Assembly (NCBI GenBank): GCA_964016885.1
Contig: OZ024746.1
Location: 86,180,001-86,244,000 of the forward strand
DNA: 64,000 nt
Direction: 5' to 3'
Origin: Eledone cirrhosa
Taxonomy: Eukaryota
The position numbers were made by a program, and so were the translations under genes. Under the pieces are notes generated by a model. That model saw only the letters and a program-made list of their open reading frames with translations. It did no database searches and was not told where the DNA came from. Below are positions 19,524 to 63,325 of the stretch, one piece after another. Positions within the stretch are counted from its first letter, which is position 1. The number at the start of each line of letters is the position of its first letter.

Positions 19524-19599
<76 letters not shown>

Positions 19600-25975: not shown

Positions 25976-26554
25976 GTGTTTTTTATTGTTACTCCATGAC
26001 ATGGATCCGTCTTTCTTTTACTGACATCTTTGTAACATGTACTGTGTTTTATCACAGCTTCATATCTTCTTACGTTTTCAAAAGATAACTCTATCGTAAG
26101 ATTTGGTTTATTTATAAGACTTCGTTTTCCATCTGTCCACTTCAATCTTTTTATTATTTGTTCAAGGATTAGGGCGGCAGAATAGAGTTCTTTTGCATCA
26201 GATCGGCTTCAAAAATTCTGAATACATTTGTTGATATTTCTTTCTATTCTGCAATAAAATTCGAACTATGTGTTAATTCTCAACCCTTTTGTCCTGTAAT
26301 AAGTAAAATATAATTGTGTGTCAAGTTTTCATCTATTTTGTTGAAGTAAGAGCTCATAAAATCGACCCATTTCATTTGGTAACAGGATTATTGACGCCGC
26401 CATGTTTGACGCTCGCCGTTTGATTCAGCTCACTTGGACATGTTTGTAAAGAGAAAACTGTAACTTCTTAATCGTATTGTCATCAGCTTTGCGATTGTTT
26501 GACTTTCAATTTTTGTCTTGTTTTTAGGTGTGATTCTGGTGCAGTCATAATGCA

Positions 26555-28127
26555 GTTTTTAATGTGGTGCGGAATTTGTGTTGTTTTTAATGTGGTGTGG
26601 CCATAGTGTTGTCTTTAATGTGGTGTGGCCATAGTGTTGTTTTTAATATGGTGTAGCCATAGTGTTGTTTTTAATGTGGTGTAGCCATAGTGTTGTTTTT
26701 AATGTGGTGTAGCCATAGTGTTGTTTTTAATGTGGTGTGGCCATAGTGTTGTTTTTAATGTGGTGTAGCCATAGTGTTGTTTTTAATGTGGTGTGGCCAT
26801 AGTGTTGTCTTTAATGTGGTGTAGCCATAGTGTTGTTTTTAATGTGGTGTGGCCATAGTGTTGTTTTTAATGTGGTGTAGCCATAGTGTTGTCTTTAATG
26901 TAGTGTGGCCATAGTGTTGTTTTTAATGTGGTGTAGCCATAGTGTTGTTTTTAATGTTGTGTAGCCATAGTGTTGTTTTTAATGTGGTGTAGCCATATTG
27001 TTGTTTTTAATGTAGTGTGGCCATAGTGTTGTTTTTAATGTGGTGTGGCCATAGTGTTGTCTTTAATGTGGTGTGGCCATAGTGTTGTTTTTAATGTGGT
27101 GTGGCCATAGTGTTGTTTTTAATGTGGTGTAGCCATAGTGTTGTTTTTAATGTAGTGTGGCCATAGTGTTGTTTTTAATGTGGTGTGGCCATAGTGTTGT
27201 CTTTAATGTGGTGCAGTCATGGTGTTGTCTTTAATGTGGTGTGGCCATAGTGTTGTCTTTAATGTGGTGTAGCCATAGTGTTGTTTTTAATGTGGTGTTG
27301 CCATAGTGTTGTTTTTAATGTAGTGTAGTCATAGTGTTGTTTTTAATGTGGTGCAGTCATGGTGTTGTTTTTAATGTGGTGTAGTCATAGTGTTGTTTTT
27401 AATGTGGTGCAGTCATGGTGTTGTTTTTAATGTGGTGCAGTCATGGTGTTGTTTTTAATGTGGTGTAGCCATAGTGTTGTTTTTAATGTGGTGTGGCCAT
27501 AGTGTTGTTTTTAATGTGGTGCAGTCATGGTGTTGTTTTTAATGTGGTGCAGTCATGGTGTTGTTTTTAATGTGCTGTAGCCATAGTGTTGTTTTTAATG
27601 TGGTGTGGCCATAGTGTTGTTTTTAATGTGGTGTAGCCATAGTGTTGTTTTTAATGTGGTGTGGCCATAGTGTTGTCTTTAATGTGGGGTAGCCATAGTG
27701 TTGTTTTTAATGTGGTGTGGCCATAGTGTTGTTTTTAATGTGGTGTAGCCATAGTGTTGTTTTTAATGTGGTGTAGCCATAGTGTTGTTTTTAATGTGGT
27801 GTAGCCATAGTGTTGTTTTTAATGTGGTGTGGCCATAGTGTTGTTTTTAATGTGGTGTGGCCATAGTGTTGTTTTTAATGTGGTGTAGTCATAGTGTTGT
27901 TTTTAATGTGGTGTGGTCATAGTGTTGTTTTTAATGTGGTGTAGTCATAGTGTTGTTTTTAATGTGGTGTAGCCATAGTGTTGTTTTTAATGTGGTGTGG
28001 CCATAGTGTTGTTTTTAATGTGGTGTGGCCATAGTGTTGTTTTTAATGTGGTGTAGCCATAGTGTTGTTTTTAATGTGGTGCAGTCATGTTGTTGTTTTT
28101 AATGTGGTGTAGTCATAGTGTTGTTTT
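26555..28127. repeat. 28-bp tandem satellite, ~56 copies
   Basis: TGTGGTGTRGCCATAGTGTTGTTTTTAA; CCATAG at 26601, 26629, ... Confidence 0.95.
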
Positions 28128-30377: not shown

Positions 30378-30479
30378 CATATATACATACAAATATATAT
30401 ATGTATATATGTGTGTATATATATATATATCCAGTTCGTGATTTGAACTCGGGAGTTTTATATTCTCCGAGCGAAAAGA

Positions 30480-30563
30480 ACCCTCTGACGAAAGTCTTCT
30501 TCTCAATGGATTTCCGCATGGATTATCCATTTATTTTGAGACTTGAAACCGCACGGTAAGGGT
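30480..30563 (+). ncRNA. Type I hammerhead ribozyme within a ~200-bp TA-flanked fragment (30431-30633)
   Basis: ACCCT-CTGACGA-AAGTCT(41 nt)AGACTT-GAAA-CCG(CA)CGG-TA-AGGGT. Confidence 0.8.
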
Positions 30564-30630
30564 AATTACAGCAGGCACAGTGAACTTTTTAAAATTTATT
30601 TTAAAACTGTTTCTTATTTGCTAAACCTTG

Positions 30631-30663
<33 letters not shown>

Positions 30664-39148: not shown

Positions 39149-39306
<158 letters not shown>

Positions 39307-39323
39307 ATACAAATTCAGAAACG

Positions 39324-39383
<60 letters not shown>

Positions 39384-39585
39384 ATACTTTGGGAGGGTCA
39401 TGTTGCCAATAAGAAACACACGCACCAGTTGCTTTCACTTCAATTTATTATATATTTATAAATTTACACACGATTTCAGATAAAGAATCTTGCTAAACAA
39501 ATTCAGAAACGAAATATATATATATATATATATAAAATATTAAACAAATAATGAACAAACAATTCCTTATATTAAACAAAAAAAG

Positions 39586-39740
39586 TTCACTATTTAACGA
39601 TCGTTTCTAGGGTATATATGTGCTATAATTGGTATGCATATTTAACAGATCTATGTACAAAATTATACAAAATTATACAAATTATCAAGATTAAATATAC
39701 ATACCTAACACATATATACGCCGTCTTCAGAAATAATGAA
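39586..39740 (-). ncRNA. Hammerhead ribozyme, mirror copy
   Basis: Reverse complement of 51112-51266. Confidence 0.75.
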
Positions 39741-40517
39741 GTATATTTATTGATAATAACAACAATTCAAAATATCAGTTCAAAATTGACCAATGAAAAC
39801 ACAAAGGGTTAAAAAACAGTTTGGTGTGTGTATATACATGTAAAACCCTACACACATTTTACAATAATGTGTGTATAATATGTATGTGCATACTAAAAAG
39901 ATGGATGCAAATAAAAAATTTCAAGGTTAATATCTCTGTAAGCTTAATGCGCTGATAAGAAACGCAATGATACTTATGTAGTCAAGCATATAAATATATT
40001 TTTTTCATACTCACACATATCAGTATAATCACACATACATGTGCGTATATATATAAAAAATATACACATAACCACGAACACACAAACACACACACACCCC
40101 CCACTCACATTTATATATGTGGATATAAAATCATAAGCAAATAGAAATTAAGTCACTCACATAAACACACTGGTACAACCATTTCAAGATCAAGATACAG
40201 AAATTAGGTGGGAGGGGGGGGGAGGGTTCAGTATTAGGTTGTCAGACAGACAGCCTAATATAAATGTATCTATAAATTATGAAAAATAAAAATAAAAAAA
40301 TAAAAACAATAAAATATATTACATATAATATAATGTACATACGCATACAGATATACATACACATACGTACATGTACGCGCACATAGAGATATCTACACAT
40401 ACATACATACACACATACCTATACTGTCATACACACACATACATTTACACGAACATACACATACACATATAAAAAGATAAAAATACGGACACACACACGC
40501 GCAACACATACACACAT

Positions 40518-40566
<49 letters not shown>

Positions 40567-40683
40567 TATACACACACACACATAGACTCATATATATATA
40601 CATACACATACATATACTTATACATAAACATATATATATCCCACACTCATACCACCATGAAAACACATACAAACATCCAGATG

Positions 40684-40725
<42 letters not shown>

Positions 40726-40822
40726 AACATACACACACGTACACATATATGCATATATACATACATATATACACACATACACATATATATATATATACAC
40801 ACACACATAAAATACAGACATG

Positions 40823-40853
<31 letters not shown>

Positions 40854-40949
40854 TTCATTACCCTTATATATACACATAGTATATATACATACACAACCTC
40901 ACTTATACACATATACACATAAGTTATATTACAATAATAATAAAGAATA

Positions 40950-40980
<31 letters not shown>

Positions 40981-41119
40981 TATACACACATATACACATA
41001 TACATACATACACATACATATACATACATACATACACATACATACATACACCTAAATATAAACATATATAAATACACACATACGAATAAAGACATATATT
41101 CACACATAGACACCTATAT

Positions 41120-41163
<44 letters not shown>

Positions 41164-41251
41164 ATATACACACACATACACATACATACACATATATATA
41201 TATAAACACATATATACACACGCACACACATACAGACACACATACACACTC

Positions 41252-41291
<40 letters not shown>

Positions 41292-42972
41292 GAGTGTGCG
41301 CAAATACATACATATATATACACACACACATACAAACACACACAAACACATACATATGCATACATGCACACACACACACATATATCACATAGATACGAAG
41401 ATAAACATATAAATAGAGAGACATACAAATATATACAGAACCCATATACACATACATGCAAACACGCATATACATATATACATATATACACACATATATA
41501 TTCCTATATACAAGCATACACATACGCACACATATATACATATACCTACACATATATATACCACACATTCACATACACGTACATATATAATACATATATA
41601 TACATACACATACATACATATGTATGTACAATCATATATACACACTCAATCTTACATTCATATTTACATGCTCATATATGTATTTTTATATCTAGAAATA
41701 AATACCAAAAAAACTATATAGACACCCATCTACCCAAATTCATACATATACACTTACAAAAACAGATGATAATAGTATGGGGGAAAGGGGGGGGTTTGGA
41801 GAAGAGGATCAAAGTAAATATATGTTTCAAGAAACCTATAATATTTTCCATATCTTAATTCAATGTATGTTCTTATATATTTTCAATGCCAGGAAACACG
41901 AAATCTATGCATCACAAAATAAAAAAGTATACCATTAATCATATGTCAACTAAACCAAAGATAGTCAACATATTGATTTCCAAGGTGTAAATTAGTTAGG
42001 TTTATAATATTTGAAGCAGAATTATGAAGTCAAACAGTAGTAGATTATTAATTACATTATAACTAAATTAAAGTTAATAATAGGGAAAAGAAACCCAAAT
42101 AAAAATAAAATAAAGTATTACATCGGTAGTAGCATATAAATTATATGTTAACTAAGTTAAAAATTATATATTTATTTCAATAGTATATGTTAATTAGTAT
42201 ATGTTAATTAGGTATACAATACATAAAGCAGATATTGTATTTCATCAATAGCATAATATAATTATATGCAAATAAAAATCAAAATTAATACGCATACACA
42301 TACATATACATACACATACACATACATATACATATACATACTCATATATATATATATATATACATATATATACACACATACATACATATATAGTCACATA
42401 AATATACATACAGATACACATACAATACACACATATACATATACATATAGATATACATATCTTTTTCAAAAAATTTGCACAGAATATATTAACTAGGTAT
42501 ATATCCAAAAACACCTCCCATTCTATGATTACATGAAATTCTGCAATTCGTCTGTACAAGGATACTAATTTTAAGCAAATTAAAATTAAAATTAAAGTTT
42601 TAGGTTGATTAAAGCTAAAACCAAATAATAAATATATTTCCAAAATGTATATTAATTAGGTCAATAATACTAAAAATTCTTTCTCCGTCATAGGATACAT
42701 GATATTATTTTGTTATATTTTATCTGTAAAAGAATTATAATAAAAAAAATTTTATAATAAAAGGTTAAACTAAATTAAAAAATTATAATAAAAGGTTAAA
42801 ATAAGTTAAAATTAATCTATAAATTAAATTACTGAATATATATTAGTAATATTTAAAGGTTTTTCAAAATTAATGATTACATAATATTTTCTCATCTGTA
42901 ATAAAATATTAATTAAATTAAATTTATAGGTTAACTAACATTTAAATTAAATTAAATTCTAGAATAATGTTA

Positions 42973-45405
42973 TTAATTAGGTTTATAATATTTAAATGTT
43001 TTTTTTAGTTTATGATTACACGATATAATTAATTCCTGTCTTTTATTTAATAAGATATCCCTAGACTTCATTATTTCAAATAGTTCTTGGGAACATAATC
43101 TACATTCCTTTCTATTATTTTGATAAGGGGTGGCTCTTTTGAGCACACTCCAGGTCAAATCATATTTTATATTTTTATTTTTATAACTATTGATTTTTTC
43201 TGCTAGAGATGTTGTATTAGCCAGTGCGGCATTTTTAAAGCTATGTTTGTGGGTATTATACCTTGTCTTAAAATTGTTAGAGGTAGCTCCTATATATGAG
43301 CAAATAGAATCTTTAGTTTTAACATTACATTTATAGACTATGTTGTTAACAAGACAATTCCCTTTTAATGGGCAGTTTGTTTTGTTTCTACAGTTACATC
43401 CTTTCGTTAATTCTGTATTTGAGGAGATATTATTGTTAATTTGATGTACTGGTGGTATACTTATAGTTTTCTTACATTTATATGCATTATATGCACTTAT
43501 ATTTTGTTTTATGTTATTTGTTGTAGAATATGAGAATTTAACTGTAGACCTATTTAAGATTTGATGGTATTTGTGGTTTGGCGGGAAGTTTTTCTCAAGG
43601 ATATAAAAAAATTTTTTAGCAATATTATCCTTAACTTGTAAATTAAAAGGAGCATTATACCAAGTAACTCGTCTATTACGGTTTCTATGTTGTTTATTAT
43701 TTTTATTATTTTTATATGTTGTATCATGATTTTTACTAGGAGGAATAATGTTAATGATCTCACCACAACTATTTTTAGTTATATTTGTAGATTTAGGTGT
43801 TTTATCTTTTTTATTAGGAGTTTTATTATTAATATTTATTATAGTCTTATGATGAGTAGTTTTTTGAGGGTTACTATACTTTATATTAGAAGATTTAGTA
43901 TTTTGGGGTATACTGTGGGTGGCATTTAGGTGTGTACCTTTCATTTGGTGTTTGTTGGTAATATTATGCTGTATGTTTTCAGTATTTTTAGTAGAAGTTA
44001 TATACTCTAATCTATTTTTGTGGCCACTTCTATCTAGAGCTTCATTATAAAAGGTCGCATTTTTATCAAATACATCTTGGTTAGAAGAAAGGTTAGAAAT
44101 TCTAAGTGATATATTATATGCAAGGTTTTTAAGGATAGATTTAGGGTGATTAGATTGTGAGTGTATGTAATGTAAGTTTTGGTTAGGTTTATGGTAAGGT
44201 TGGTATATACCCGTAGCTAAATCTAAAGTTATATCTAGGAAATTTACTACTTTACTTGTTTTTTCAAAAGTAATATTAAGATTATAATAGTCCTTAAGGA
44301 AAGTTCTAATATGCTTTTTGTTTTTTTCGATTTCTGAAAGGCTAAGGTTGTTAGAAAGAAGAAGACAGTCATCACGATATAAACCACCTTTGAGGTGGGG
44401 AAAAGAGGCATTTATGTTGAAAAGGAGAAAGAGGCCCACAAGATCAGTAATTTGGGCAGAATCGCTTGAACCCATAGTAATATCAAAAAGATTACTATAA
44501 GTGTTTCTGGTCCAGTATTCATTCTGAAATTCAATAAGTGTTTGTCTAGCATGTGTAATAATGTTAATGTCATCCGAAGTTAAATTAGATCTATTTTTAG
44601 CAAATATTAATGCTTTGTTCAGGAGTATGGGTGATATAGAAGAATAATAGTTATCTATATCAAACTGTAGGAAGGAAGCAGAAGATTTACACCTAATATT
44701 TTTAAACCAATTAATTACCTGGGAGGTGTTTTCCCAGAGTGGTAAAATAACGTATTTTCTTATTTGTGGGATGACTCTATCTAAAATTTTTTTGCTAATT
44801 ATTCCAATATCTGATTTGGAGGGACATATAAGTCTAATAGAAGGATTAGAGTTAAAGTTAGATTTGTGATCTTTCAGGTTGAAGTGTGGACTTCTCAATG
44901 CCAAAGGTTCAGTTCTATCTTCAATATTTAGTTTTTTTACTATGTTGTGTGTTTTGTTGTTGATATTGGTGAGTGACGCATTATTAGATTTTTTATAACT
45001 TTTTCTGAGTTCTTTATATATGAACTCATTATAATGTTCAATATCCATATGATACAAGTTACCAGTTTTGTCCGAGTGGACATGGATTTTTTTAGACTTT
45101 TTTAGGTCCAATAGGGTAGAATCAAGGTCCTTTTGAAAGACGGATTTATACTTTTTAAATTTGAGATGTTTAATTAAATTAAAAAGGTCTTTCTCGAAGT
45201 CTTCAAGTAAAAAGTTGTGTGGTGGATTCTTGTAAGTGTTGAAATCATACATATATTTCCGATCTGCTTGTTTAGATTTTCTATCAAAGTGGTAGGCTCT
45301 CCATCTAACCCTTCTGATAAAATTATTAGTTTTCTGAATCATAAGGAGTAAGAAGTCGTCCTTAGAAGGTATTGGTATGTTTTTTAAGGAGGTTCCTAAA
45401 TATTG
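42973..45405 (-). CDS. Inverted copy of the PLE RT-GIY-YIG ORF lacking the first codons (next Met gives 789 aa)
   Basis: Identical translation to the + copy; the native ATG lies in the spacer and is not duplicated. Confidence 0.85.
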   Translation of the reverse strand, partial: QYLGTSLKNIPIPSKDDFLLLMIQKTNNFIRRVRWRAYHFDRKSKQADRKYMYDFNTYKNPPHNFLLEDFEKDLFNLIKHLKFKKYKSVFQKDLDSTLLDLKKSKKIHVHSDKTGNLYHMDIEHYNEFIYKELRKSYKKSNNASLTNINNKTHNIVKKLNIEDRTEPLALRSPHFNLKDHKSNFNSNPSIRLICPSKSDIGIISKKILDRVIPQIRKYVILPLWENTSQVINWFKNIRCKSSASFLQFDIDNYYSSISPILLNKALIFAKNRSNLTSDDINIITHARQTLIEFQNEYWTRNTYSNLFDITMGSSDSAQITDLVGLFLLFNINASFPHLKGGLYRDDCLLLSNNLSLSEIEKNKKHIRTFLKDYYNLNITFEKTSKVVNFLDITLDLATGIYQPYHKPNQNLHYIHSQSNHPKSILKNLAYNISLRISNLSSNQDVFDKNATFYNEALDRSGHKNRLEYITSTKNTENIQHNITNKHQMKGTHLNATHSIPQNTKSSNIKYSNPQKTTHHKTIININNKTPNKKDKTPKSTNITKNSCGEIINIIPPSKNHDTTYKNNKNNKQHRNRNRRVTWYNAPFNLQVKDNIAKKFFYILEKNFPPNHKYHQILNRSTVKFSYSTTNNIKQNISAYNAYKCKKTISIPPVHQINNNISSNTELTKGCNCRNKTNCPLKGNCLVNNIVYKCNVKTKDSICSYIGATSNNFKTRYNTHKHSFKNAALANTTSLAEKINSYKNKNIKYDLTWSVLKRATPYQNNRKECRLCSQELFEIMKSRDILLNKRQELIISCNHKLKKTFKYYKPN

Positions 45406-45437
45406 AGCTCTTTCAATTGTCCATCATCCATATCACA

Positions 45438-47879
45438 ATGGAAAAACAATATTTAGGAACCTCCTTAAAAAACATACCAATACCTTCTAAGGACGACTTC
45501 TTACTCCTTATGATTCAGAAAACTAATAATTTTATCAGAAGGGTTAGATGGAGAGCCTACCACTTTGATAGAAAATCTAAACAAGCAGATCGGAAATATA
45601 TGTATGATTTCAACACTTACAAGAATCCACCACACAACTTTTTACTTGAAGACTTCGAGAAAGACCTTTTTAATTTAATTAAACATCTCAAATTTAAAAA
45701 GTATAAATCCGTCTTTCAAAAGGACCTTGATTCTACCCTATTGGACCTAAAAAAGTCTAAAAAAATCCATGTCCACTCGGACAAAACTGGTAACTTGTAT
45801 CATATGGATATTGAACATTATAATGAGTTCATATATAAAGAACTCAGAAAAAGTTATAAAAAATCTAATAATGCGTCACTCACCAATATCAACAACAAAA
45901 CACACAACATAGTAAAAAAACTAAATATTGAAGATAGAACTGAACCTTTGGCATTGAGAAGTCCACACTTCAACCTGAAAGATCACAAATCTAACTTTAA
46001 CTCTAATCCTTCTATTAGACTTATATGTCCCTCCAAATCAGATATTGGAATAATTAGCAAAAAAATTTTAGATAGAGTCATCCCACAAATAAGAAAATAC
46101 GTTATTTTACCACTCTGGGAAAACACCTCCCAGGTAATTAATTGGTTTAAAAATATTAGGTGTAAATCTTCTGCTTCCTTCCTACAGTTTGATATAGATA
46201 ACTATTATTCTTCTATATCACCCATACTCCTGAACAAAGCATTAATATTTGCTAAAAATAGATCTAATTTAACTTCGGATGACATTAACATTATTACACA
46301 TGCTAGACAAACACTTATTGAATTTCAGAATGAATACTGGACCAGAAACACTTATAGTAATCTTTTTGATATTACTATGGGTTCAAGCGATTCTGCCCAA
46401 ATTACTGATCTTGTGGGCCTCTTTCTCCTTTTCAACATAAATGCCTCTTTTCCCCACCTCAAAGGTGGTTTATATCGTGATGACTGTCTTCTTCTTTCTA
46501 ACAACCTTAGCCTTTCAGAAATCGAAAAAAACAAAAAGCATATTAGAACTTTCCTTAAGGACTATTATAATCTTAATATTACTTTTGAAAAAACAAGTAA
46601 AGTAGTAAATTTCCTAGATATAACTTTAGATTTAGCTACGGGTATATACCAACCTTACCATAAACCTAACCAAAACTTACATTACATACACTCACAATCT
46701 AATCACCCTAAATCTATCCTTAAAAACCTTGCATATAATATATCACTTAGAATTTCTAACCTTTCTTCTAACCAAGATGTATTTGATAAAAATGCGACCT
46801 TTTATAATGAAGCTCTAGATAGAAGTGGCCACAAAAATAGATTAGAGTATATAACTTCTACTAAAAATACTGAAAACATACAGCATAATATTACCAACAA
46901 ACACCAAATGAAAGGTACACACCTAAATGCCACCCACAGTATACCCCAAAATACTAAATCTTCTAATATAAAGTATAGTAACCCTCAAAAAACTACTCAT
47001 CATAAGACTATAATAAATATTAATAATAAAACTCCTAATAAAAAAGATAAAACACCTAAATCTACAAATATAACTAAAAATAGTTGTGGTGAGATCATTA
47101 ACATTATTCCTCCTAGTAAAAATCATGATACAACATATAAAAATAATAAAAATAATAAACAACATAGAAACCGTAATAGACGAGTTACTTGGTATAATGC
47201 TCCTTTTAATTTACAAGTTAAGGATAATATTGCTAAAAAATTTTTTTATATCCTTGAGAAAAACTTCCCGCCAAACCACAAATACCATCAAATCTTAAAT
47301 AGGTCTACAGTTAAATTCTCATATTCTACAACAAATAACATAAAACAAAATATAAGTGCATATAATGCATATAAATGTAAGAAAACTATAAGTATACCAC
47401 CAGTACATCAAATTAACAATAATATCTCCTCAAATACAGAATTAACGAAAGGATGTAACTGTAGAAACAAAACAAACTGCCCATTAAAAGGGAATTGTCT
47501 TGTTAACAACATAGTCTATAAATGTAATGTTAAAACTAAAGATTCTATTTGCTCATATATAGGAGCTACCTCTAACAATTTTAAGACAAGGTATAATACC
47601 CACAAACATAGCTTTAAAAATGCCGCACTGGCTAATACAACATCTCTAGCAGAAAAAATCAATAGTTATAAAAATAAAAATATAAAATATGATTTGACCT
47701 GGAGTGTGCTCAAAAGAGCCACCCCTTATCAAAATAATAGAAAGGAATGTAGATTATGTTCCCAAGAACTATTTGAAATAATGAAGTCTAGGGATATCTT
47801 ATTAAATAAAAGACAGGAATTAATTATATCGTGTAATCATAAACTAAAAAAAACATTTAAATATTATAAACCTAATTAA
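45438..47879 (+). CDS. Penelope-like (Naiad-type) reverse transcriptase with C-terminal GIY-YIG endonuclease, 813 aa
   Basis: SLKNIPIPS, SDKTGN, QFDIDNYY, ITMGS, LYRDD, FLDITL, SNHP, WYNAPF, CNCR..CPL.GNCL, IVY..SYIG, FKTRYNTHK, CRLCSQE; no internal stops. Confidence 0.93.
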   Translation: MEKQYLGTSLKNIPIPSKDDFLLLMIQKTNNFIRRVRWRAYHFDRKSKQADRKYMYDFNTYKNPPHNFLLEDFEKDLFNLIKHLKFKKYKSVFQKDLDSTLLDLKKSKKIHVHSDKTGNLYHMDIEHYNEFIYKELRKSYKKSNNASLTNINNKTHNIVKKLNIEDRTEPLALRSPHFNLKDHKSNFNSNPSIRLICPSKSDIGIISKKILDRVIPQIRKYVILPLWENTSQVINWFKNIRCKSSASFLQFDIDNYYSSISPILLNKALIFAKNRSNLTSDDINIITHARQTLIEFQNEYWTRNTYSNLFDITMGSSDSAQITDLVGLFLLFNINASFPHLKGGLYRDDCLLLSNNLSLSEIEKNKKHIRTFLKDYYNLNITFEKTSKVVNFLDITLDLATGIYQPYHKPNQNLHYIHSQSNHPKSILKNLAYNISLRISNLSSNQDVFDKNATFYNEALDRSGHKNRLEYITSTKNTENIQHNITNKHQMKGTHLNATHSIPQNTKSSNIKYSNPQKTTHHKTIININNKTPNKKDKTPKSTNITKNSCGEIINIIPPSKNHDTTYKNNKNNKQHRNRNRRVTWYNAPFNLQVKDNIAKKFFYILEKNFPPNHKYHQILNRSTVKFSYSTTNNIKQNISAYNAYKCKKTISIPPVHQINNNISSNTELTKGCNCRNKTNCPLKGNCLVNNIVYKCNVKTKDSICSYIGATSNNFKTRYNTHKHSFKNAALANTTSLAEKINSYKNKNIKYDLTWSVLKRATPYQNNRKECRLCSQELFEIMKSRDILLNKRQELIISCNHKLKKTFKYYKPN

Positions 47880-49560
47880 TAACATTATTCTAGAATTTAA
47901 TTTAATTTAAATGTTAGTTAACCTATAAATTTAATTTAATTAATATTTTATTACAGATGAGAAAATATTATGTAATCATTAATTTTGAAAAACCTTTAAA
48001 TATTACTAATATATATTCAGTAATTTAATTTATAGATTAATTTTAACTTATTTTAACCTTTTATTATAATTTTTTAATTTAGTTTAACCTTTTATTATAA
48101 AATTTTTTTTATTATAATTCTTTTACAGATAAAATATAACAAAATAATATCATGTATCCTATGACGGAGAAAGAATTTTTAGTATTATTGACCTAATTAA
48201 TATACATTTTGGAAATATATTTATTATTTGGTTTTAGCTTTAATCAACCTAAAACTTTAATTTTAATTTTAATTTGCTTAAAATTAGTATCCTTGTACAG
48301 ACGAATTGCAGAATTTCATGTAATCATAGAATGGGAGGTGTTTTTGGATATATACCTAGTTAATATATTCTGTGCAAATTTTTTGAAAAAGATATGTATA
48401 TCTATATGTATATGTATATGTGTGTATTGTATGTGTATCTGTATGTATATTTATGTGACTATATATGTATGTATGTGTGTATATATATGTATATATATAT
48501 ATATATATGAGTATGTATATGTATATGTATGTGTATGTGTATGTATATGTATGTGTATGCGTATTAATTTTGATTTTTATTTGCATATAATTATATTATG
48601 CTATTGATGAAATACAATATCTGCTTTATGTATTGTATACCTAATTAACATATACTAATTAACATATACTATTGAAATAAATATATAATTTTTAACTTAG
48701 TTAACATATAATTTATATGCTACTACCGATGTAATACTTTATTTTATTTTTATTTGGGTTTCTTTTCCCTATTATTAACTTTAATTTAGTTATAATGTAA
48801 TTAATAATCTACTACTGTTTGACTTCATAATTCTGCTTCAAATATTATAAACCTAACTAATTTACACCTTGGAAATCAATATGTTGACTATCTTTGGTTT
48901 AGTTGACATATGATTAATGGTATACTTTTTTATTTTGTGATGCATAGATTTCGTGTTTCCTGGCATTGAAAATATATAAGAACATACATTGAATTAAGAT
49001 ATGGAAAATATTATAGGTTTCTTGAAACATATATTTACTTTGATCCTCTTCTCCAAACCCCCCCCTTTCCCCCATACTATTATCATCTGTTTTTGTAAGT
49101 GTATATGTATGAATTTGGGTAGATGGGTGTCTATATAGTTTTTTTGGTATTTATTTCTAGATATAAAAATACATATATGAGCATGTAAATATGAATGTAA
49201 GATTGAGTGTGTATATATGATTGTACATACATATGTATGTATGTGTATGTATATATATGTATTATATATGTACGTGTATGTGAATGTGTGGTATATATAT
49301 GTGTAGGTATATGTATATATGTGTGCGTATGTGTATGCTTGTATATAGGAATATATATGTGTGTATATATGTATATATGTATATGCGTGTTTGCATGTAT
49401 GTGTATATGGGTTCTGTATATATTTGTATGTCTCTCTATTTATATGTTTATCTTCGTATCTATGTGATATATGTGTGTGTGTGTGCATGTATGCATATGT
49501 ATGTGTTTGTGTGTGTTTGTATGTGTGTGTGTATATATATGTATGTATTTGCGCACACTC

Positions 49561-49600
<40 letters not shown>

Positions 49601-49688
49601 GAGTGTGTATGTGTGTCTGTATGTGTGTGCGTGTGTATATATGTGTTTATATATATATATGTGTATGTATGTGTATGTGTGTGTATAT

Positions 49689-49732
<44 letters not shown>

Positions 49733-49871
49733 ATATAGGTGTCTATGTGTGAATATATGTCTTTATTCGTATGTGTGTATTTATATATGTTTATATTTAG
49801 GTGTATGTATGTATGTGTATGTATGTATGTATATGTATGTGTATGTATGTATATGTGTATATGTGTGTATA

Positions 49872-49902
<31 letters not shown>

Positions 49903-49998
49903 TATTCTTTATTATTATTGTAATATAACTTATGTGTATATGTGTATAAGTGAGGTTGTGTATGTATATATACTATGTGTATATATAAGGGTAATGAA

Positions 49999-50029
<31 letters not shown>

Positions 50030-50126
50030 CATGTCTGTATTTTATGTGTGTGTGTATATATATATATATGTGTATGTGTGTATATATGTATGTATATATG
50101 CATATATGTGTACGTGTGTGTATGTT

Positions 50127-50168
<42 letters not shown>

Positions 50169-50285
50169 CATCTGGATGTTTGTATGTGTTTTCATGGTGG
50201 TATGAGTGTGGGATATATATATGTTTATGTATAAGTATATGTATGTGTATGTATATATATATGAGTCTATGTGTGTGTGTGTATA

Positions 50286-50334
<49 letters not shown>

Positions 50335-51111
50335 ATGTGTGTATGTGTTGCGCGTGTGTGTGTCCGTATTTTTATCTTTTTATATGTGTATGTGTATGTT
50401 CGTGTAAATGTATGTGTGTGTATGACAGTATAGGTATGTGTGTATGTATGTATGTGTAGATATCTCTATGTGCGCGTACATGTACGTATGTGTATGTATA
50501 TCTGTATGCGTATGTACATTATATTATATGTAATATATTTTATTGTTTTTATTTTTTTATTTTTATTTTTCATAATTTATAGATACATTTATATTAGGCT
50601 GTCTGTCTGACAACCTAATACTGAACCCTCCCCCCCCCTCCCACCTAATTTCTGTATCTTGATCTTGAAATGGTTGTACCAGTGTGTTTATGTGAGTGAC
50701 TTAATTTCTATTTGCTTATGATTTTATATCCACATATATAAATGTGAGTGGGGGGTGTGTGTGTGTTTGTGTGTTCGTGGTTATGTGTATATTTTTTATA
50801 TATATACGCACATGTATGTGTGATTATACTGATATGTGTGAGTATGAAAAAAATATATTTATATGCTTGACTACATAAGTATCATTGCGTTTCTTATCAG
50901 CGCATTAAGCTTACAGAGATATTAACCTTGAAATTTTTTATTTGCATCCATCTTTTTAGTATGCACATACATATTATACACACATTATTGTAAAATGTGT
51001 GTAGGGTTTTACATGTATATACACACACCAAACTGTTTTTTAACCCTTTGTGTTTTCATTGGTCAATTTTGAACTGATATTTTGAATTGTTGTTATTATC
51101 AATAAATATAC

Positions 51112-51266
51112 TTCATTATTTCTGAAGACGGCGTATATATGTGTTAGGTATGTATATTTAATCTTGATAATTTGTATAATTTTGTATAATTTTGTACATA
51201 GATCTGTTAAATATGCATACCAATTATAGCACATATATACCCTAGAAACGATCGTTAAATAGTGAA
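51112..51266 (+). ncRNA. Type I hammerhead ribozyme with 116-nt stem II
   Basis: TTCATTATTT-CTGAAGA-[GTATATATGTGTT/AGCACATATATAC and GGTATGTATATTTAA/TTAAATATGCATACC helices]-GAAA-C(GATC)G-TT-AAATAGTGAA. Confidence 0.75.
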
Positions 51267-51451
51267 CTTTTTTTGTTTAATATAAGGAATTGTTTGTTCA
51301 TTATTTGTTTAATATTTTATCTTGACTCTGTATACCGTTTATCTTTCACCGAAATTGGATTTTCATTACATCTCTTCTTTCCATGATATCCGGAATACAT
51401 TGAGTTCTTCATACGGATTGGACACTACCGTAAACTCTTGGTAGATTTATC

Positions 51452-51508
<57 letters not shown>

Positions 51509-52641
51509 CCATATATATATATGATCATATATCAAAGGATTATATCTCCTTTAAAAATATACCCATCTTTCTACCTTATTTCAATATTATTTATTATATA
51601 TTATATAATACAAGTTACTCATTCTATATCATTCCTCTTTATCACTTTCCTTTCTTCTTCTTTTCTTTTTAATTTCTAACCTCTAATCTGTACTTTTTCT
51701 TCCTAACTACTTCTCAATTCTTATTATTACTCACCACAACATTATCCATTCTTCCATCTTTCCTCATATCATTGGCCATAAATTTTTTTTTTTTAATACA
51801 TTATAGTATTACCTTTAATAGTCCTTCATAAACATAAACATTTTTTTTGACGTTAGATTTTTCTTCCTTAAATTTCTCTTATCTCATCCTTTCATGCTCG
51901 TTTGACTTTTACATATTACAATACATAAAAACAAACTTAAACCCTAACTAATTTCTGTTAATATATTATATTATTACCATTAGAAAATATTTCGTAAACA
52001 TATATATTTTTTGATGTTAGATATTTTCTTCCTTAAACATTATTGACTTCTTTGCTTTCTGCGCTCAATTTTAAACAAACTATATACGTACACATATTAC
52101 GCACAGATATTACATTACATAAAAATAAATTTAAACCCTAACTAATTCCTCTAAATTCATAACTCATTCATTCTTCTCCTTCTTTTCACATTATATCCTT
52201 AATAACATTAATATTTTTATTTTAATAATACATATTAATAATTTCTTTTCCTCGCACATATTATTAAACCCTTCAATATACAAACCTTAATTTAATATTA
52301 TTCTTAATTCCTTTTTCTCTTCATGCATAAACCTCATTAACTTTTAATTTCAAATTCTTTTAAATTATCTATTATCTTCCAACGGCTTTTTAACTTCTCT
52401 CTGTGAGACAATATATTTTTTTTTCTCAGTTGTAAAGGCTATCTCTCTCTCTCTATCACCCATCTCTCCTCCTCTCTCATCCTTCCTTCTTATACTCATC
52501 CCCCACCATTTTTACTCTCATCTCCTCCTCTTCCTTACCTTTTCATCCCCCCCCCTCACTTTTTCCCAATCTCTTACATCAATCTTAAATTATTTTTCAT
52601 ATGTTGATTTAAAACTTCACTATTCACAAGTGTTTTTTAAG

Positions 52642-52681
<40 letters not shown>

Positions 52682-52685
<4 letters not shown>

Positions 52686-53040
52686 AAATGAAAATCGAAG
52701 GCACGGTAAAATTTCCAATCATTTTAATCACGACACGTTTCAACAAGAGATAGATCGATCGTGAAGCCATGATCAATTATTACTGATCTCATCAGGTGAA
52801 AATGAATTGTCTTCAAATTCTTGATATGAGGGGGAAAATTAGTAATGTTCACTCACAGAGTTTATTCTTTCATGATTGGAAATTTTACCTTGCCTTCGGA
52901 TTTTCATTTTGATACTAATACTCCGTTTTACTTCATCTAGCTGCTCCCTTGAATGGAATTGGAGATATACAAAAGCGTGGAGAACTTAATATTGCTAACA
53001 AAAATTTATTGGACCGTTTTACACAACCAATAATACACCT
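52682..53040 (+). mobile_element. Fold-back with tail; hammerhead candidate at 52728-52799 on the minus strand
   Basis: 52682-52722 mirrors 52872-52913; minus strand TCAC-CTGATGA-GATCAG..CTTGTT-GAAA-CGTG-TC-GTGA. Confidence 0.6.

Positions 53041-53180: not shown

Positions 53181-53187
<7 letters not shown>
53065..53187 (-). mobile_element. Tail fragment of the CAGAAGA family
   Basis: Matches 19183-19292. Confidence 0.7.
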
Positions 53188-53229
<42 letters not shown>

Positions 53230-53270
53230 TTTAAATAAATTAAAAAAAGTTTACTGTACTTACTATATTT

Positions 53271-53354
53271 ACCCTTACCACGCGGTTTCAAGTCTCAAAA
53301 TAAATGGATAATCCATGCGGAACAACATTGAGAAGGAGACTTTCGTCAGAGGGT
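53271..53354 (-). ncRNA. Hammerhead ribozyme, same family as 30480-30563 (partial third copy 53683-53782)
   Basis: ACCCT-CTGACGA-AAGTCT..AGACTT-GAAA-CCGCGTGG-TA-AGGGT; third copy has palindromic ACCGCGCGGT. Confidence 0.8.
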
Positions 53355-53781
53355 TCTTCTCACTCGGAGAATATAAAATTCCCGAGTTCAAATCACGAAC
53401 TGGCGCCATACAGAACTGTTCCCGGATGAGAGTGTATGATAAAGAAACAATCTTGTCTTGTGCCGTGTGTAAAGATAGAAGGCAAGGGCGGAAAGGTCAA
53501 TGTCCTGTCACTAGAAATATCAGCAGTTAAAACGACCAAAATGTTATCTCGACCTTAGGGGAGATTAATAATAATAAAGTATGTTTTCCTATGTTCAAAA
53601 AATGCATATAGGGACACATGTATTATCCAACCGTATGCCAATGTGGTTCTATCGCAGGTTAATAAATTAACGAGCCAGAACATATAATCAAGGTTTAGCA
53701 AATAGAGAAAAAGTTTTAAAATAAATTTTAAAAAGTTTACTCTACTTACTATATTTACCCTTACCGCGCGGTTTCCAGTCT

Positions 53782-54838: not shown

Positions 54839-55081
54839 CTTAAAAATGTGTGTGTATGTGAGAGTGTGTGGGTGTGTAATATATATACCCCCCCCCCCCC
54901 TAAACACGCACATATATATATATGTATATATTTATATGTTAAGTGTATGATATTTTGTTAATACTATATATATATAGTATAAACAAAATATCATACACTT
55001 AACAGGGACGTGCTACCATTGGTTTCAGGGTCCAGTTATGGCCATCACTGTATATTGGAGGAGGCACTTATATATATATAT

Positions 55082-55390
55082 ATAAGAAGAAATTAAAAGA
55101 TGGTTAAAAAAGTTTCATATATTTTATTATGCGCATTTCAAAAACAAATATCATCTTGGGACGATAGTTGCATTCTCATCAGATAGAATAAGGTAACATG
55201 ATATGATGCCTAAATGATATGATCCCAGGATGATATTTGTTTTTGAAATGATCATAATAAAATATATGGAACTTTTTAACCATCTTTTAATTTCTTCTTA
55301 GATATACCCCAGTCCAATAAACTGTTGAGTGCTACCTATCCGATATATGCATAGTTTTATTGTTCTACAATAAAACTCACCTTCTACATT
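55082..55390 (+). mobile_element. Fold-back with tail; hammerhead at 55120-55190 on the minus strand
   Basis: TATTCTAT-CTGATGA-GAATGCAACTATCGTC(CCAA)GATGATATTTGTTTTT-GAAA-T(GCGC)A-TA-ATAAAATA. Confidence 0.7.
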
Positions 55391-58815: not shown

Positions 58816-59695
58816 AGTTGCATTTATCTTGCTTTATGTTCATACGAGTTATCACCAAGTCACAACCAGTGACCTCAAGAGACAACAAGGTCCGCCATGT
58901 TCAAGAAAGAACATACATACTCACACATGCATCTTTAGTGTTTAGACTTGTGATGTACTTATATTGACAGAATCTTCCTTAGTATATGGGAAGTTCCCAT
59001 TAGTACTATCTTTTGTATTTCTCCTATACGCGGGTTTCCTGGGATTTGCGATAAGTAATCATTAGACCCCTTAGGTATCATTCCCAGAGCGCCTACAACC
59101 ACTGGTATTGTTTTAGTTCTCAATTTCCACATTTTTCCAATTTCTATCTCCAGGTCCTTATACTTGCTCAATTTTTCAAATGTTTTTATAGATACATTCT
59201 TGTCTATTGGAACAGACATATCAATTAGCAGGCATACCCTCTTTTTAAAGTCCTTCAATATTATATCAGGTCTATTTGCATCTATTTTTCGGTCTGTTTG
59301 GATGCTAAAGTTCCACAAGATTGAGATGTGATCTTTTTCAAGTATGGGAGGTGGTTGATGCTCCCACCAATTCTTTTGATGGGGCAGGTCAAAATGCTTA
59401 CACATTATCCAATGTATGTATTGTGCAGCTCTGTCATGCCTGTTTAGGTATTCGGTTGGAGCTATATGACTGCACATTGAAATTATATGGTCAATGGTCT
59501 CTGGTTGTTTTTTGCATACACGGCATAATGGGCTGCATCCATTTTTATTATGTTGGCTTGGTAATTTTTTGTTGGCAGACACTGATCTTGTGCTGATATA
59601 ATCAGTCCTTCAGTCTCCGATTTCAGTCCAGAGGATGCCAACCACTGATGGGTTAAAGTTTTGTCAACATCAGGATTGTTAGCTCGCTCTGGGTA

Positions 59696-59697
<2 letters not shown>
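58813..59697 (-). mobile_element. 5'-truncated R4/Dong-like non-LTR retrotransposon (RLE domain)
   Basis: CRVC..ETIDHIISMC, RHD, RPDIIL..CLLIDMSVP, KLSKY; (TAA)n on both sides. Confidence 0.8.
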
Positions 59698-59737
<40 letters not shown>

Positions 59738-59738
<1 letters not shown>

Positions 59739-60057
59739 GTTCTTTGAGTCTCAGTCATTGATGTTAGTTAACTGGAAAGTTTGTTGAAATGAATATCAAG
59801 CCACTACCTGCAGCCTCAGATATTCAGGACGTATCGGAGGGTTCTTGCTGTTCCCAGCAAGCATGCCGTTTGAAACGTTCCAAAAAGCGTGAAGGATCCA
59901 ATTTTCTTTAACCATCCCTGGAAACTTTTTGAGATAGTACCTAGTGCGCCTATGACAATCGGGACCACTCTGACTTCATGGCAGTTCCAAATCCTTTTTA
60001 CCTCCCACTTTATCGGAGGGTTCTTGCTGTTCCCAGCAAGCATGCCTTTTGAAGCGT
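59738..60057 (-). mobile_element. Short R4/Dong-like 3' fragment with internal duplication
   Basis: Same C-terminus (GTARTLRYVLNI) and 3' UTR as 60090-60972. Confidence 0.75.
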
Positions 60058-60089
60058 ATTATTATTATTATTATTATTATTGTTATTGT

Positions 60090-60972
60090 TATTCCTTGAA
60101 TCTCAGTCATTGATGTTGGTTAACTGGAAAGTCCGTTGGATTGAATATCAAGCCACTACCTGCAGCCTCAGATATTCAGGACGTATCGGAGGGTTCTTGC
60201 TGTTCCAAGCAAGCATGCCTTTTGAAGCGTTCCAAAAAGCGTGAAGGGGCCGATTTTCTTTAACCATCCCTGGAAACTTTTGGAGATAGTCCCCAGTGCG
60301 CCTATGACAATCGGGATCACTTTGACTTCATGGCAGTTCCAAATCCTTTTCACCTCCCACTTTAGGTCCTGGTATCGGTTAATTTTCTCCCTCTCCTTCT
60401 CTTGCACTCTCGTGTCGAACGGGCAGGCCACATCCACAATCAGGCACGATCTTTTTTCTTTGTCCACAACCACCAGGTCAGGTCTATTGTGTTCCAGTTT
60501 TTTGTCCGTCTGTATCCTAAAATCCCACAGCACCTTCACCTGATTGTTCTCCATCACCGCCTCTGGCCTATGCTCATACCATTTCTCAGAATGTGGTAAA
60601 TTGTTTACTTTGCACAGGTGCCAGTGGATCACCCTGCCCATCACATTGTGTCTCCAGCCCTTATAGTGGGTCTGGGCTAGGTGTTTACACTCGGACACAA
60701 TGTGAGCCACAGTCTCCTCTCTCTCTCCACAGATCCTGCACAGTGGGCTAGCCTCCTCCTTGTAGATATGGTGCTTCAACCACTTCGTTTTGAGGGCCTG
60801 CTCCTGCGCAGCCATTAGCATTCCTTCTGTAGCCTTTTTGAGGTCTCCTCTTCTCAACCAGTTCCATGTCTGTGGATCTCTAAATTCAGTTTTCTCAAAG
60901 AAGGTACTATGAAGGGATTTTCCCTTAAGGCTGCTCTTCCTCCTTGATGTTATTTCCTCCTTGGACATCCCC
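60090..60972 (-). mobile_element. 5'-truncated R4/Dong-like retrotransposon, open 268-aa C-terminal frame
   Basis: CRIC..ETVAHIVSEC, RHN, RPDLVV..CLIVDVACP, KINRY; (TAA)n flanks. Confidence 0.85.
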
Positions 60973-60982
60973 AATAATAATA

Positions 60983-61035
<53 letters not shown>

Positions 61036-61188
61036 CTACTTTTGGCACAAGGCCAGAAATTACCCAGTACATTACTTGTACTACACCAAGGTTAACTTTG
61101 CTTTTCATCCTTACGGGGTCGATAAAATAAAGTACCAGTAATATACTGGGTAATTTCTGGCCTTGTGCCAAAAGTAGAAACAATTATT
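61036..61188. mobile_element. SINE family A fragment with inverted 3' end
   Basis: 61036-61083 mirrors 61131-61178. Confidence 0.7.
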
Positions 61189-61197
61189 ATTATCAAC

Positions 61198-63009
61198 ATG
61201 GATAACACAAGAAACAGAGAGAGCGCTGTCAGACAACACAGAGAGAGGGAGACTTTATCAGCATGTCAACAAGACAGCGTTCCAGCAGAGGTAAATATAA
61301 ACGAAAATATTACAAAGGAAAAGAAGATTGTTACAGATTTAAAATTAACAAATATTTCTAACACAAACAACACCAACAATAACACCAACAACAACACCAA
61401 CAACAACACCACCAATAACAACAGCAACAACAAAAATAACAGCGGTAAAGTCGAGAACGACAATAACAAAAATAACAGCGGTAAGGTCGAGAACGACAAT
61501 AACAATGACAATAACAATAGCTACAACAATAATAGTAGGAACAGTATCAACAAAAACAACAATAATAACAACAGCAACAATAACAGTAACAACAGCAACA
61601 GTATCAACGAAAACAACAACAACAACACAAACAACTGTATCAACGAAAACATCAACAATGACATCGATACCTGTAGTAGCGATCACAGCACCACCAGTAA
61701 GACCAGTAGCGGCGGCAATAGTGGTGCTGCTGAAAAAGGGACCACTTCTTTTGCAGGTGTCGCCCGAAATATCGAGACAGTGTTAGTCACAGAGGAGGAG
61801 ATGGCAGTCGCAAGAGCCATGGTGACAAGAAGCGCCAATAGAGTCTCCCTGAAACCTCCACCCGATTTTTTCAAGGACCAGCAGCTACGGACGGTGACTT
61901 ACCGCACCGTAAGCAAAATCTCACATCGGGTGAAGAGAGCCACGGAGGCTCAAATCCAAAAGGCGTTGGGGTGCGTCTGGGCACGCAAAACCCACATCAC
62001 CCGAGGCAGAAAGTACGCCACAGTAGACGTAGTTTTCGCCACCCCCCAGGAAGCAAAGTCTCACTCTTTGGAAACCCTAAAGAGTGAGGAGATAGTCTTG
62101 GTGCCCTCCTTATGCGGGCAAAAAATTGTGAGGGTCAAAATGACCCAGGTCCCACCCGACGTGCCCATACCTTGGCTGGCGGCGTCTGTCCTTGCTGGAA
62201 TCGAGAACAGGACGACCATGCTGCAAGTAGAAAAAATAGGGAGAGAGAACTGGTCAGGTATAGGCATGACAATGCTTATACAAACTGACCAGGAATGTAT
62301 CGACGCTATCCCCGATATCATAGACATCGAGGAAGGACTCCAACTCCCTATAAGTGTAGAAGGAAGACGGCCAAAATGTTATTTCTGTGGGTCGAAGGGT
62401 CACCTCAGGGCCTTTTGCCCGCAGAAGACAGCGAAGAAGAAGGCCCCTCTCCTTCCAATACCTGGTCCGCTGCTACCAAGAGCAGGGCAGGCAACAAACG
62501 CAGAAGCCCCTTCCACGGTGAGTAGGAAGGCAACGTCCGTAGCACCCGTACCAAGGCCACGGACAACTAAAGCAGCATCATCAGTGGCGGCAACACCAAT
62601 GGCTACATTTGAAGTAGCTACACCAGCAACAAAATTGCCGAAGAGGGCTCCACTACCACCACCAACAGCCATGGAGCACATACCCCTCCCAGAGGCCACA
62701 GAATCCGACATGGTGTTTGAGGCGGGAGTCAAGTGGCAATCGGTCTGCCACAAAAAACAAAAAACAAAAAAACCCTTAGATTCACCCTCCGAAAGCGAAG
62801 GCATACAAAGAGGGGGTAAAGGCAGCAAGGAAACTTGCAGCAACACCACCACCATCACCACCACAAACACCACTGACAACAACAACCACACCACCACCAG
62901 CATCACCAAAAACACCAACAACGCAAACACAAGACACACACACACCAAACAGCAACAAGAAGAAAACAGTAACAATATCACCCCTCCTCCCAAAAGTATA
63001 CAGCCATAA
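61198..63009 (+). CDS. L1/Tx1-like ORF1 (Asn-rich N-terminus, CCHC zinc knuckle)
   Basis: VEGRRPKCYFCGSKGHLRAFCP; lies upstream of an APE ORF; start taken at first ATG (MDNTR). Confidence 0.75.
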   Translation: MDNTRNRESAVRQHRERETLSACQQDSVPAEVNINENITKEKKIVTDLKLTNISNTNNTNNNTNNNTNNNTTNNNSNNKNNSGKVENDNNKNNSGKVENDNNNDNNNSYNNNSRNSINKNNNNNNSNNNSNNSNSINENNNNNTNNCINENINNDIDTCSSDHSTTSKTSSGGNSGAAEKGTTSFAGVARNIETVLVTEEEMAVARAMVTRSANRVSLKPPPDFFKDQQLRTVTYRTVSKISHRVKRATEAQIQKALGCVWARKTHITRGRKYATVDVVFATPQEAKSHSLETLKSEEIVLVPSLCGQKIVRVKMTQVPPDVPIPWLAASVLAGIENRTTMLQVEKIGRENWSGIGMTMLIQTDQECIDAIPDIIDIEEGLQLPISVEGRRPKCYFCGSKGHLRAFCPQKTAKKKAPLLPIPGPLLPRAGQATNAEAPSTVSRKATSVAPVPRPRTTKAASSVAATPMATFEVATPATKLPKRAPLPPPTAMEHIPLPEATESDMVFEAGVKWQSVCHKKQKTKKPLDSPSESEGIQRGGKGSKETCSNTTTITTTNTTDNNNHTTTSITKNTNNANTRHTHTKQQQEENSNNITPPPKSIQP

Positions 63010-63325
63010 ACATGGCAAATAAAGAACTCCTACAACACATAAAGCAGCATACAGACATCACAGATAAAAACTACTACACCTCACCAACACCAAGAACTCT
63101 ACCGACAAACATAAGCATCATTGAAATCTCAATAGAACAGTACAAACCTTTAAAACAAAAATTCCCCAACGCAGTTGGAGACTTCAGAGGGTCGGTTACC
63201 AAGAGGATATACACTGACATCCTCTTGGAAATACCCATGACCAGCGAAAGGGACAGTTCTACTGTCCCTTCACCACACGATCAAGGTAAGTGACTCTTTC
63301 TCACTTGCCCCGTTTCTCATCCAAC

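Follow-up and report, generated by a model that had tools for sequence, protein, structure and literature searches.

A near-complete head-to-head inversion of a Hydra-clade Penelope-like element in Eledone cirrhosa, and a duplicated hairpin that may mark insertion ends

The window analysed here is a 64,000-nt stretch of the Eledone cirrhosa assembly GCA_964016885.1 (contig OZ024746.1, forward strand, 86,180,001 to 86,244,000; positions below count from its first letter). It contains an ∼ 11.8-kb palindrome in which two copies of a Penelope-like retrotransposon, assigned by sequence and structural modelling to the Hydra clade, lie head to head. Our reading, held at a probability of roughly 0.58, is that the palindrome is one recent insertion into a (TA)n target, made by an enzyme that would have cut both strands and reverse-transcribed its RNA in two passes, each from a start that a hairpin would mark. 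The case is built on the architecture of the locus, on a conserved hairpin found at the ends of this and related insertions and on published biochemistry of another clade.

Palindrome architecture and the duplicated hairpin

A base-by-base walk established that 39532–45405 (left arm, minus strand) and 45447–51320 (right arm, plus strand) are exact reverse complements over 5874 bp, with 0 mismatches, and self-comparison returned 39532–51320 as the dominant inverted match of the window. The identity holds across 13 dinucleotide runs (12–38 nt each), all of them mirrored, so that the sequence-only reading of this DNA was right in both respects. The arms are separated by 41 bp (45406–45446, plus), which comprise the short 5′ untranslated region (UTR) and the first three codons of the right copy. 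As first reported, this spacer holds the sole native ATG, at 45438; the left-copy open reading frame (ORF; 42973–45405, minus) consists of residues 4–813 and has no native start codon, the inverted copy lacking Met1–Lys3 as well as the 3′ tail. That tail, put earlier at ∼ 135 bp, measures 134 nt (51321–51454, plus) and belongs to the right copy only. It runs from 51320 to a (TA)n tract (51455–51506), whereas the left arm sits directly on (TA)n (39514–39531), the likely target site. With (TA)n on both sides no target duplication can be read, and the sequences flanking the palindrome on the left and right are unrelated to each other. The unit length of the element is 6.05 kb. There is no repeat of the 3′ end ahead of the ATG, that is, no upstream pseudo-long terminal repeat (pseudo-LTR), and the insertion therefore probably has no promoter of its own. 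The element had been described as intact; this is true of the ORF, but upstream there are only 35 nt between the start of the right copy and its ATG.

Related copies occur in sequencing runs from other samples. Between 30 and 59% of sampled words were present in six runs from two studies, and contigs of four runs were placed on 45366–48400 (2017, 220, 192 and 71 contigs, with identities from > 99% to < 90%); the family is multi-copy in these four runs. Their copies differ from the window at fixed sites, and the runs are therefore not the assembly's own sample. Among the 38 ORF differences that belong to the 40 best-supported ones (there are 244 further differences), 23 are synonymous against 11.1 expected (0/2000 simulations). 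One contig matches the window from 45403 only and carries other letters upstream, ending in TAG as several relatives do. This bears on the TATTG/CAATA microhomology proposed earlier for the centre. The letters are indeed there, as the last 5 bp of the arms, but since the contig diverges upstream of 45403 the usable microhomology shrinks to 3 nt, TTG/CAA: TTG at 45403–45405 (plus) ends the left arm and, judging from this one contig of a related sample, also belongs to the native 5′ sequence, and CAA lies at 45447–45449. For the 14 loose letters ahead of 45403 the window offers no exact match and four with 2 mismatches; they could alternatively represent flank or another inversion junction.

The relatives examined comprise 91 loci, 77 from metagenome contigs and 14 from genome contigs, which are most likely animal DNA within those records; a search of viral contigs gave 0 relatives among 91 candidates. 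The 14 genome contigs (L078–L091) come from bacterial genome bins; their Hydra-type elements have ribozymes and are flanked by (TA)n. These contigs are most likely mis-binned DNA of animal hosts. In relatives the motif TTGAGCRCT lies upstream of 48 of 61 ORF starts, mostly 21–57 nt away, and forms the 3′ side of a hairpin that consists of GCTC and a short stem, a loop, a 2-nt bulge and GAGC. Two such GCTC-stem-NN-GAGC hairpins, 55–83 nt apart, are found between the ribozyme and the ATG in 31 of 95 segments downstream of ribozymes. The hairpin covaries. Across 71 distinct examples the inner pairs 1–3 are Watson–Crick in 70, 51 and 45, compared with shuffle means of 35.8, 21.3 and 17.9; each observed count was reached in 0/5000 shuffles (the shuffles ignore relatedness), and inner pair 1 is C–G in 41 and T–A in 29. 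Inner pair 4 is weak (28/71, reached in 183/5000 shuffles). Reading the motif at the centre as an initiator or a splice acceptor was not upheld, as just 10 of the 48 motifs follow AG and the motif is one strand of the covarying hairpin.

Insertion ends cluster at this hairpin. Sixty-four other segments were aligned to two-hairpin references, of which 25 aligned and 13 were usable; the 3′ end lies 0–6 nt before hairpin 1 in eight of these and 1–3 nt before hairpin 2 in three, i.e. 11/13 are at a hairpin. Long forward copies (L012, L008, L029, L076 and L080) end at hairpin 1, which is thus an end in its own right. At the locus itself the tail-less arm end, 51320, lies 4 nt before the first conserved hairpin (ACTC-TGT ... 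ACA-TT-GAGT, 51325–51405, plus). It is the same hairpin as in relatives and has here an A–U outer pair; its interior between outer stem and bulge is expanded to 71 nt, against 6–18 nt in relatives; the expansion accounts for a tail of 134 nt, where the hairpin spacing of relatives is 55–83 nt. The 3′ strand (TT-GAGC, 45403–45408, plus) of the second conserved hairpin, 35 nt ahead of the ATG, is where the right copy starts. The start of L037 likewise falls on the 3′ strand of hairpin 1, that of L036 immediately ahead of hairpin 2. We infer that the right copy is one unit long but for hairpin 2's loop and 5′ strand.

The same arrangement recurs in the window. At 10906–11413 (plus) lies a small palindrome of related sequence, with 160-bp arms that are 96% alike and a spacer of 40 bp; its portion 10906–11278 is a diverged relative of the large element (∼ 65% over the 3′ end). 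Its hairpin stands at the same 4-nt distance from the tail-less end, and its tail, counted from the homologous base, is 135 nt, in agreement with the earlier remark on asymmetric, diverged copies nearby. A strict hairpin pattern, allowing the A–U variant, has six sites on the plus strand of the 64 kb, four of which begin 3–4 nt past the tail-less arm end of a palindrome (11278, 12578, 13140 and 51320).

We consider the relation between hairpins and insertion ends a new element of this analysis. The twin hairpin is not described in the excerpts of PMC8557442, of a 2026 retrozyme preprint or of PMC4209133 (word searches for hairpin and stem-loop), nor in the rest of the literature searched, whose scope left out subscription papers, Repbase and some supplements.

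Origin of the inverted copy

How could such a product arise? Both strands of the self-complementary (TA)n target would be cut, and each would prime a minus-strand complementary DNA (cDNA). One cDNA would start just before hairpin 2, and so carry the 134-nt tail, and run through the whole unit to the hairpin 2 ahead of the ATG; the other would start just before hairpin 1, remain tail-less and extend at least to codon 4. Their 3′ ends could then pair head to head via TTG/CAA and be filled in. It is the product that is seen, and cutting, start sites and joining are deduced from it. A purified protein of the Poseidon clade (PAc, from Anolis) cuts and extends both target strands in vitro and uses two start sites whose distance equals the genomic tail (PMC11167929). 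In PAc, as in our proposal, the two reverse transcriptase (RT) starts lie near a stem-loop and set the tail, and the target is AT-rich; those of PAc differ in lying inside the ORF start, at an AC-rich stem-loop (PMC11167929), whereas in the Hydra relatives they would precede two bulged GCTC/GAGC hairpins in the UTR. We suggest, at about even odds, a more general rule: the duplicated covarying hairpin of the Hydra clade would provide two RT loading and start signals, one per cut strand, the present locus would be a fresh double-length product in which both cDNAs cover nearly the whole unit, and the signals would predict tail length and both insertion ends clade-wide.

Several observations weigh against two separate priming events. 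The in vitro work concerns another clade. Zero differences over 5874 bp, including 13 microsatellites, suit the copying of one strand slightly better, and a spacer on the tail-bearing copy, as here and in L084, is required by fold-back but merely allowed by two starts; among the loci examined there is no case with the tail on the shorter arm alone. The hairpin rule has its own gaps. Twelve of the 25 aligned segments were dropped (contig end or < 88% identity), the 11 ends at hairpins derive from about five families, and 2/13 ends are away from any hairpin (with references merely 88–89% alike). Six other palindrome ends in the window show no strict hairpin, and shuffled sequences fold as well as the 134-nt tail does (z −1.06 and −1.28). 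The right end is placed at the hairpin-2 site by spacing, as the 5′ strand of hairpin 2 is absent from the window. Lastly, no contig of the four runs crosses the palindrome centre, and 0/9 listed joints switch strand there, although short contigs from other samples are uninformative on this point.

The sequence-only reading had favoured fold-back. On this account one full-length cDNA folds at TTG/CAA, primes itself and is copied back as far as the base of hairpin 1, a halt that leaves it 134 nt short, before it joins the left flank; the centre would be identical to that made by two starts. The perfect identity of the arms fits, and so does a short loop, 41 bp of native sequence, that lies on the copy with the tail; spacers are 0–149 bp in 8/8 small palindromes measured in the window, albeit these were picked as centred, which favours short spacers, and self-priming has been proposed from head-to-head palindromes of rotifer Penelope elements (PMC3846280). 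Yet this account gives no reason why a DNA-templated strand should stop 3–4 nt before the RNA hairpin that long copies use for their first-strand ends. The 721–859 bp spacers of L078, L084 and L037 are not local hairpin loops, both arms of L080 end at hairpin 1, and two start sites on both strands have been shown in vitro (PMC11167929). Because the tail-less end coincides with a site at which relatives' long forward copies stop as well, and because two starts are documented in vitro, we favour priming from two starts and rank fold-back second, as a possible but less probable origin.

We regard an artefact of library or assembly (a fold-back chimeric read, or two identical copies that were mis-joined or smoothed in the consensus) as improbable, in line with the earlier judgement that the structure is biological. 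A chimeric read would mirror up to the read end and would not halt at a family-specific site, but all three junctions are at such sites: the left end 4 nt before hairpin 1, as in the diverged copy, and the centre at hairpin 2. Tail-less ends 3–4 nt before one conserved hairpin, here and in three small palindromes nearby, are strong evidence against an artefact, and the flanks are unrelated. What keeps the suspicion alive is the absolute identity through microsatellites and homopolymers, together with the lack of an independent molecule across the centre in contigs of the four other-sample runs; polishing could also mask a small number of true differences in a genuine structure. The least probable explanation in our view is an older head-to-head insertion homogenized by gene conversion from arm to arm, in which case identity would say little about age. 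Palindrome arms with short spacers are able to convert each other, and at fixed sites the window copy is unlike those of the four runs. Older small palindromes in the window have however drifted to 94–99% arm identity, and the ORF, ribozyme and hairpin of the large element are all undamaged. The very recent insertion claimed at the outset is thus supported, unless the arms were homogenized.

Inverted copies as such are well documented. Penelope-like elements carry an inverted 5′-truncated copy at the 5′ end and a 30–40 bp tail at one end (PMC8557442), compared with 134 nt here; in the Hydra clade, the listed Penelope-13_HM bears an inverted copy of 966 nt at the 5′ end (PMC8557442). Head-to-head is the commonest arrangement, with inverted repeats of varying size (PMC2377424, PMC3846280), and the pseudo-LTR formed by a partial tandem is optional in published copies (PMC2377424). 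Penelope of Drosophila virilis and the Adineta vaga families resemble the present locus in their large, variable inverted repeats and one-sided tail, but there the inverted part usually adjoins the pseudo-LTR of a partial tandem, which is missing here (PMC2377424, PMC3846280), and unlike in those cases the inverted copy covers all of the ORF except 3 codons. The excerpt of PMC13282606 held nothing relevant to palindrome structure. Among our relatives, L078 has an inverted arm of 1519 bp spanning residues 252–802, and L084 one of 758 bp (100% identity), its spacer being 771 bp and its tail ∼ 62 nt long; L037, L080 and L087 have shorter inverted copies, and many relatives show the direct pseudo-LTR, a repeat of the 3′ end upstream. 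No relative among the 91 loci has two near-complete ORFs, but most contigs are 2–6 kb and too short to show such a structure. The inversion of the whole element, emphasized in the earlier reading, stands out by its completeness; other copies, too, are inverted deep into the ORF. With its near-complete form the locus stands at the extreme of a range of published structures.

The origin of inverted copies and one-sided tails in Penelope-like elements is named an open question in PMC8557442, which a conserved hairpin at both insertion ends makes directly testable. The locus also supplies an intact, apparently recently active Hydra-clade protein together with its RNA signals; no functional study of the clade was found in the literature searched. 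A perfect palindrome with 5.9-kb arms and a 41-bp spacer would be a likely source of cruciform breakage and assembly errors and, if read through, would yield a hairpin RNA that could silence the family.

The encoded protein, clade assignment and 3′ UTR

The right-hand ORF (45438–47879, plus) encodes 813 amino acids, and its Met1 aligns with the starts of relatives. It is composed of a TERT-like RT (residues ∼ 1–475, YRDD at 346), a low-complexity N/K/T-rich segment (∼ 476–579) and, at the C terminus, a GIY-YIG domain (∼ 668–803). A telomerase-related RT and a GIY-YIG endonuclease in one ORF agree with the original assignment to the Penelope-like elements. The protein model has a predicted local distance difference test score (pLDDT) of 81, and PDB ranks 1–9 in a structure comparison are telomerase RTs (best E 6.5e-9). 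A model of the C-terminal domain (668–803), folded from 70 aligned domains, has I-TevI (Z 9.3, root-mean-square deviation 2.3, 89 aligned), T4 EndoII and UvrC as its top three matches. The endonuclease residues Y, Y, G, R, H, E and N are invariant in the 70 domains, as are eight Cys/His positions (C6, C14, C20, C104, C107, C132, H55 and H134). In sequence searches, Pfam recognized GIY-YIG in 12 of the 70 domains, the window's own not among them, and gave no match to the window protein at E ≤ 0.1. The PDB sequence search gave a single match, a retron RT at E 0.009, and a PDB search with the endonuclease profile nothing useful; Foldseek gave no match to the endonuclease model at E ≤ 0.001, though GIY-YIG chains ranked first. 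The ∼ 100-residue N/K/T-rich insert (46863–47174) is predicted to be disordered, is missing from most relatives and resembles the asparagine-rich inserts of rotifer Penelope ORFs (PMC3846280).

The element had been labelled Naiad-type, which has to be corrected. Naiad elements are defined by an N-terminal endonuclease (PMC8557442), and the order here, RT followed by endonuclease, excludes them. The other Naiad hallmarks, a CxC linker before the RT, DKA and CCHH (PMC8557442), are also absent: the first Cys of the protein is residue 197, DKT (at 115) replaces DKA, and the 70 domains have no pair of conserved Cys residues between their GIY and YIG motifs. The (TA)n targeting, inverted 5′-truncated copies, one-sided tail and 5′ truncation are common to Naiad and our element; Naiad has no canonical hammerhead (PMC8557442). 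The Hydra clade, in contrast, is characterized by a C-terminal endonuclease without CCHH, RWK, DKT, CxCx5C, CxxC and CxH motifs, (TA)n targets and a hammerhead (PMC8557442). The element shares this domain order, the lack of CCHH, RW[K/R] (RWR at 37), DKT and the cysteine motifs CxCx5C (CNCRNKTNC at 673), CxxC (CRLC at 771) and CxH (CNH at 799), in the same layout as in the Hydra alignment, as well as the (TA)n target (PMC8557442); a candidate type I hammerhead lies near its 3′ end. On the evidence of motifs and models it is a Hydra-clade Penelope-like retrotransposon. As the best of 117 homologues is only 40% identical across the full length, it is by sequence a family of its own, a new and long one, distinct from Hydra-1_Obim (2507 bp, other ribozyme; compared by eye). 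Listed Hydra members measure 1.1–3.0 kb, against 6.05 kb here, but the phrase 'generally under 3 kb' is general wording and not a defining trait (PMC8557442).

The extra length is due to the 3′ UTR (47880–51121, plus), which is 3242 nt long, AT-rich (24% GC) and laden with microsatellites; its initial 520 nt are covered by contigs of the four runs. The ORF end is 53–524 nt from the ribozyme in 52 of 53 relatives and 2463 nt in the other, so that a 3.2-kb 3′ UTR is unusual for Hydra-type elements. It leads into a type I hammerhead-like motif (51112–51266, plus; mirrored at 39586–39740, minus, as follows from arm identity), which is putatively self-cleaving. The motif has a 10-bp stem I, the core CTGAAGA at 51122, a stem II region of 116 nt, compared with 10–31 nt in 53 relatives, and a palindromic stem III; the predicted cut is after 51256 and the fold has a z of −6.6. 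Core, stem I and palindromic stem III agree with the Hydra table of PMC8557442. A hammerhead pattern with stem II ≤ 60 nt did not find the motif, and an Rfam search of 45300–51600 gave 77 matches, none at the gathering score and nearly all of them microRNA models on microsatellites, with no hammerhead at E ≤ 5.

Neighbouring repeats in the window

Of the small palindromes that the sequence-only reading had taken for copies of the large element, only 10906–11278 is related; 12097–12578 and 12813–13140 belong to other families. The palindrome at 12097–12735 has 203-bp arms at 96%, its tail-less arm (end 12578) lies 3 nt before the bulged hairpin described above, and the next (TA)n is 157 nt away; that at 12813–13307 has 153-bp arms at 99%, with the tail-less arm (end 13140) 4 nt before this hairpin and 167 nt to the next (TA)n. 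Both are probably 3′ ends of further long-tailed Hydra-type families. A Penelope-like insertion with a tail of canonical length (∼ 36 nt, one-sided, no hairpin) occupies 6364–10845; it is a nested inversion with ∼ 1-kb arms at 94% and an inner second inversion of microsatellite-rich sequence. Immediately to its left is a perfect palindrome (6009–6293) with 142-bp arms, a (TA)n centre and no spacer. Small (TA)n-flanked palindromes with one-sided extensions at 52681–52914, 54937–55004 and 55077–55306 show degenerate hairpin traces only.

A short repeat family is represented at 13409–13618, 19503–19530 and 39380–39513, with a compact hammerhead core at 13409. Its segment 39368–39466 is identical to 13520–13618 (99 bp), which places the large palindrome next to part of another element with recent activity; 39302–39330 and 39490–39518 share a repeated 25-bp piece. 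Further hammerhead cores occur in a head-to-head palindrome at 16369–16685 (152-bp arms, 95%), one per arm (16483 minus, 16570 plus). Core-like motifs in an inverted pair (30431–30662 and 53181–53403, 85%) and at 33918 and 34045, 127 bp apart, are possibly retrozyme-like.

The right part of the window contains pieces of non-LTR retrotransposons, with matches below the Pfam cut-offs: two C-terminal fragments with a weak zf-RVT match at 58959–60983 (minus), and, at 61126–63898 (plus), an ORF1-like frame that contains a zinc knuckle, after which comes an endonuclease/exonuclease/phosphatase piece. Tandem arrays are present at 26537–28127 and 17936–18417; their offsets are multiples of 28 bp and of 60 bp.

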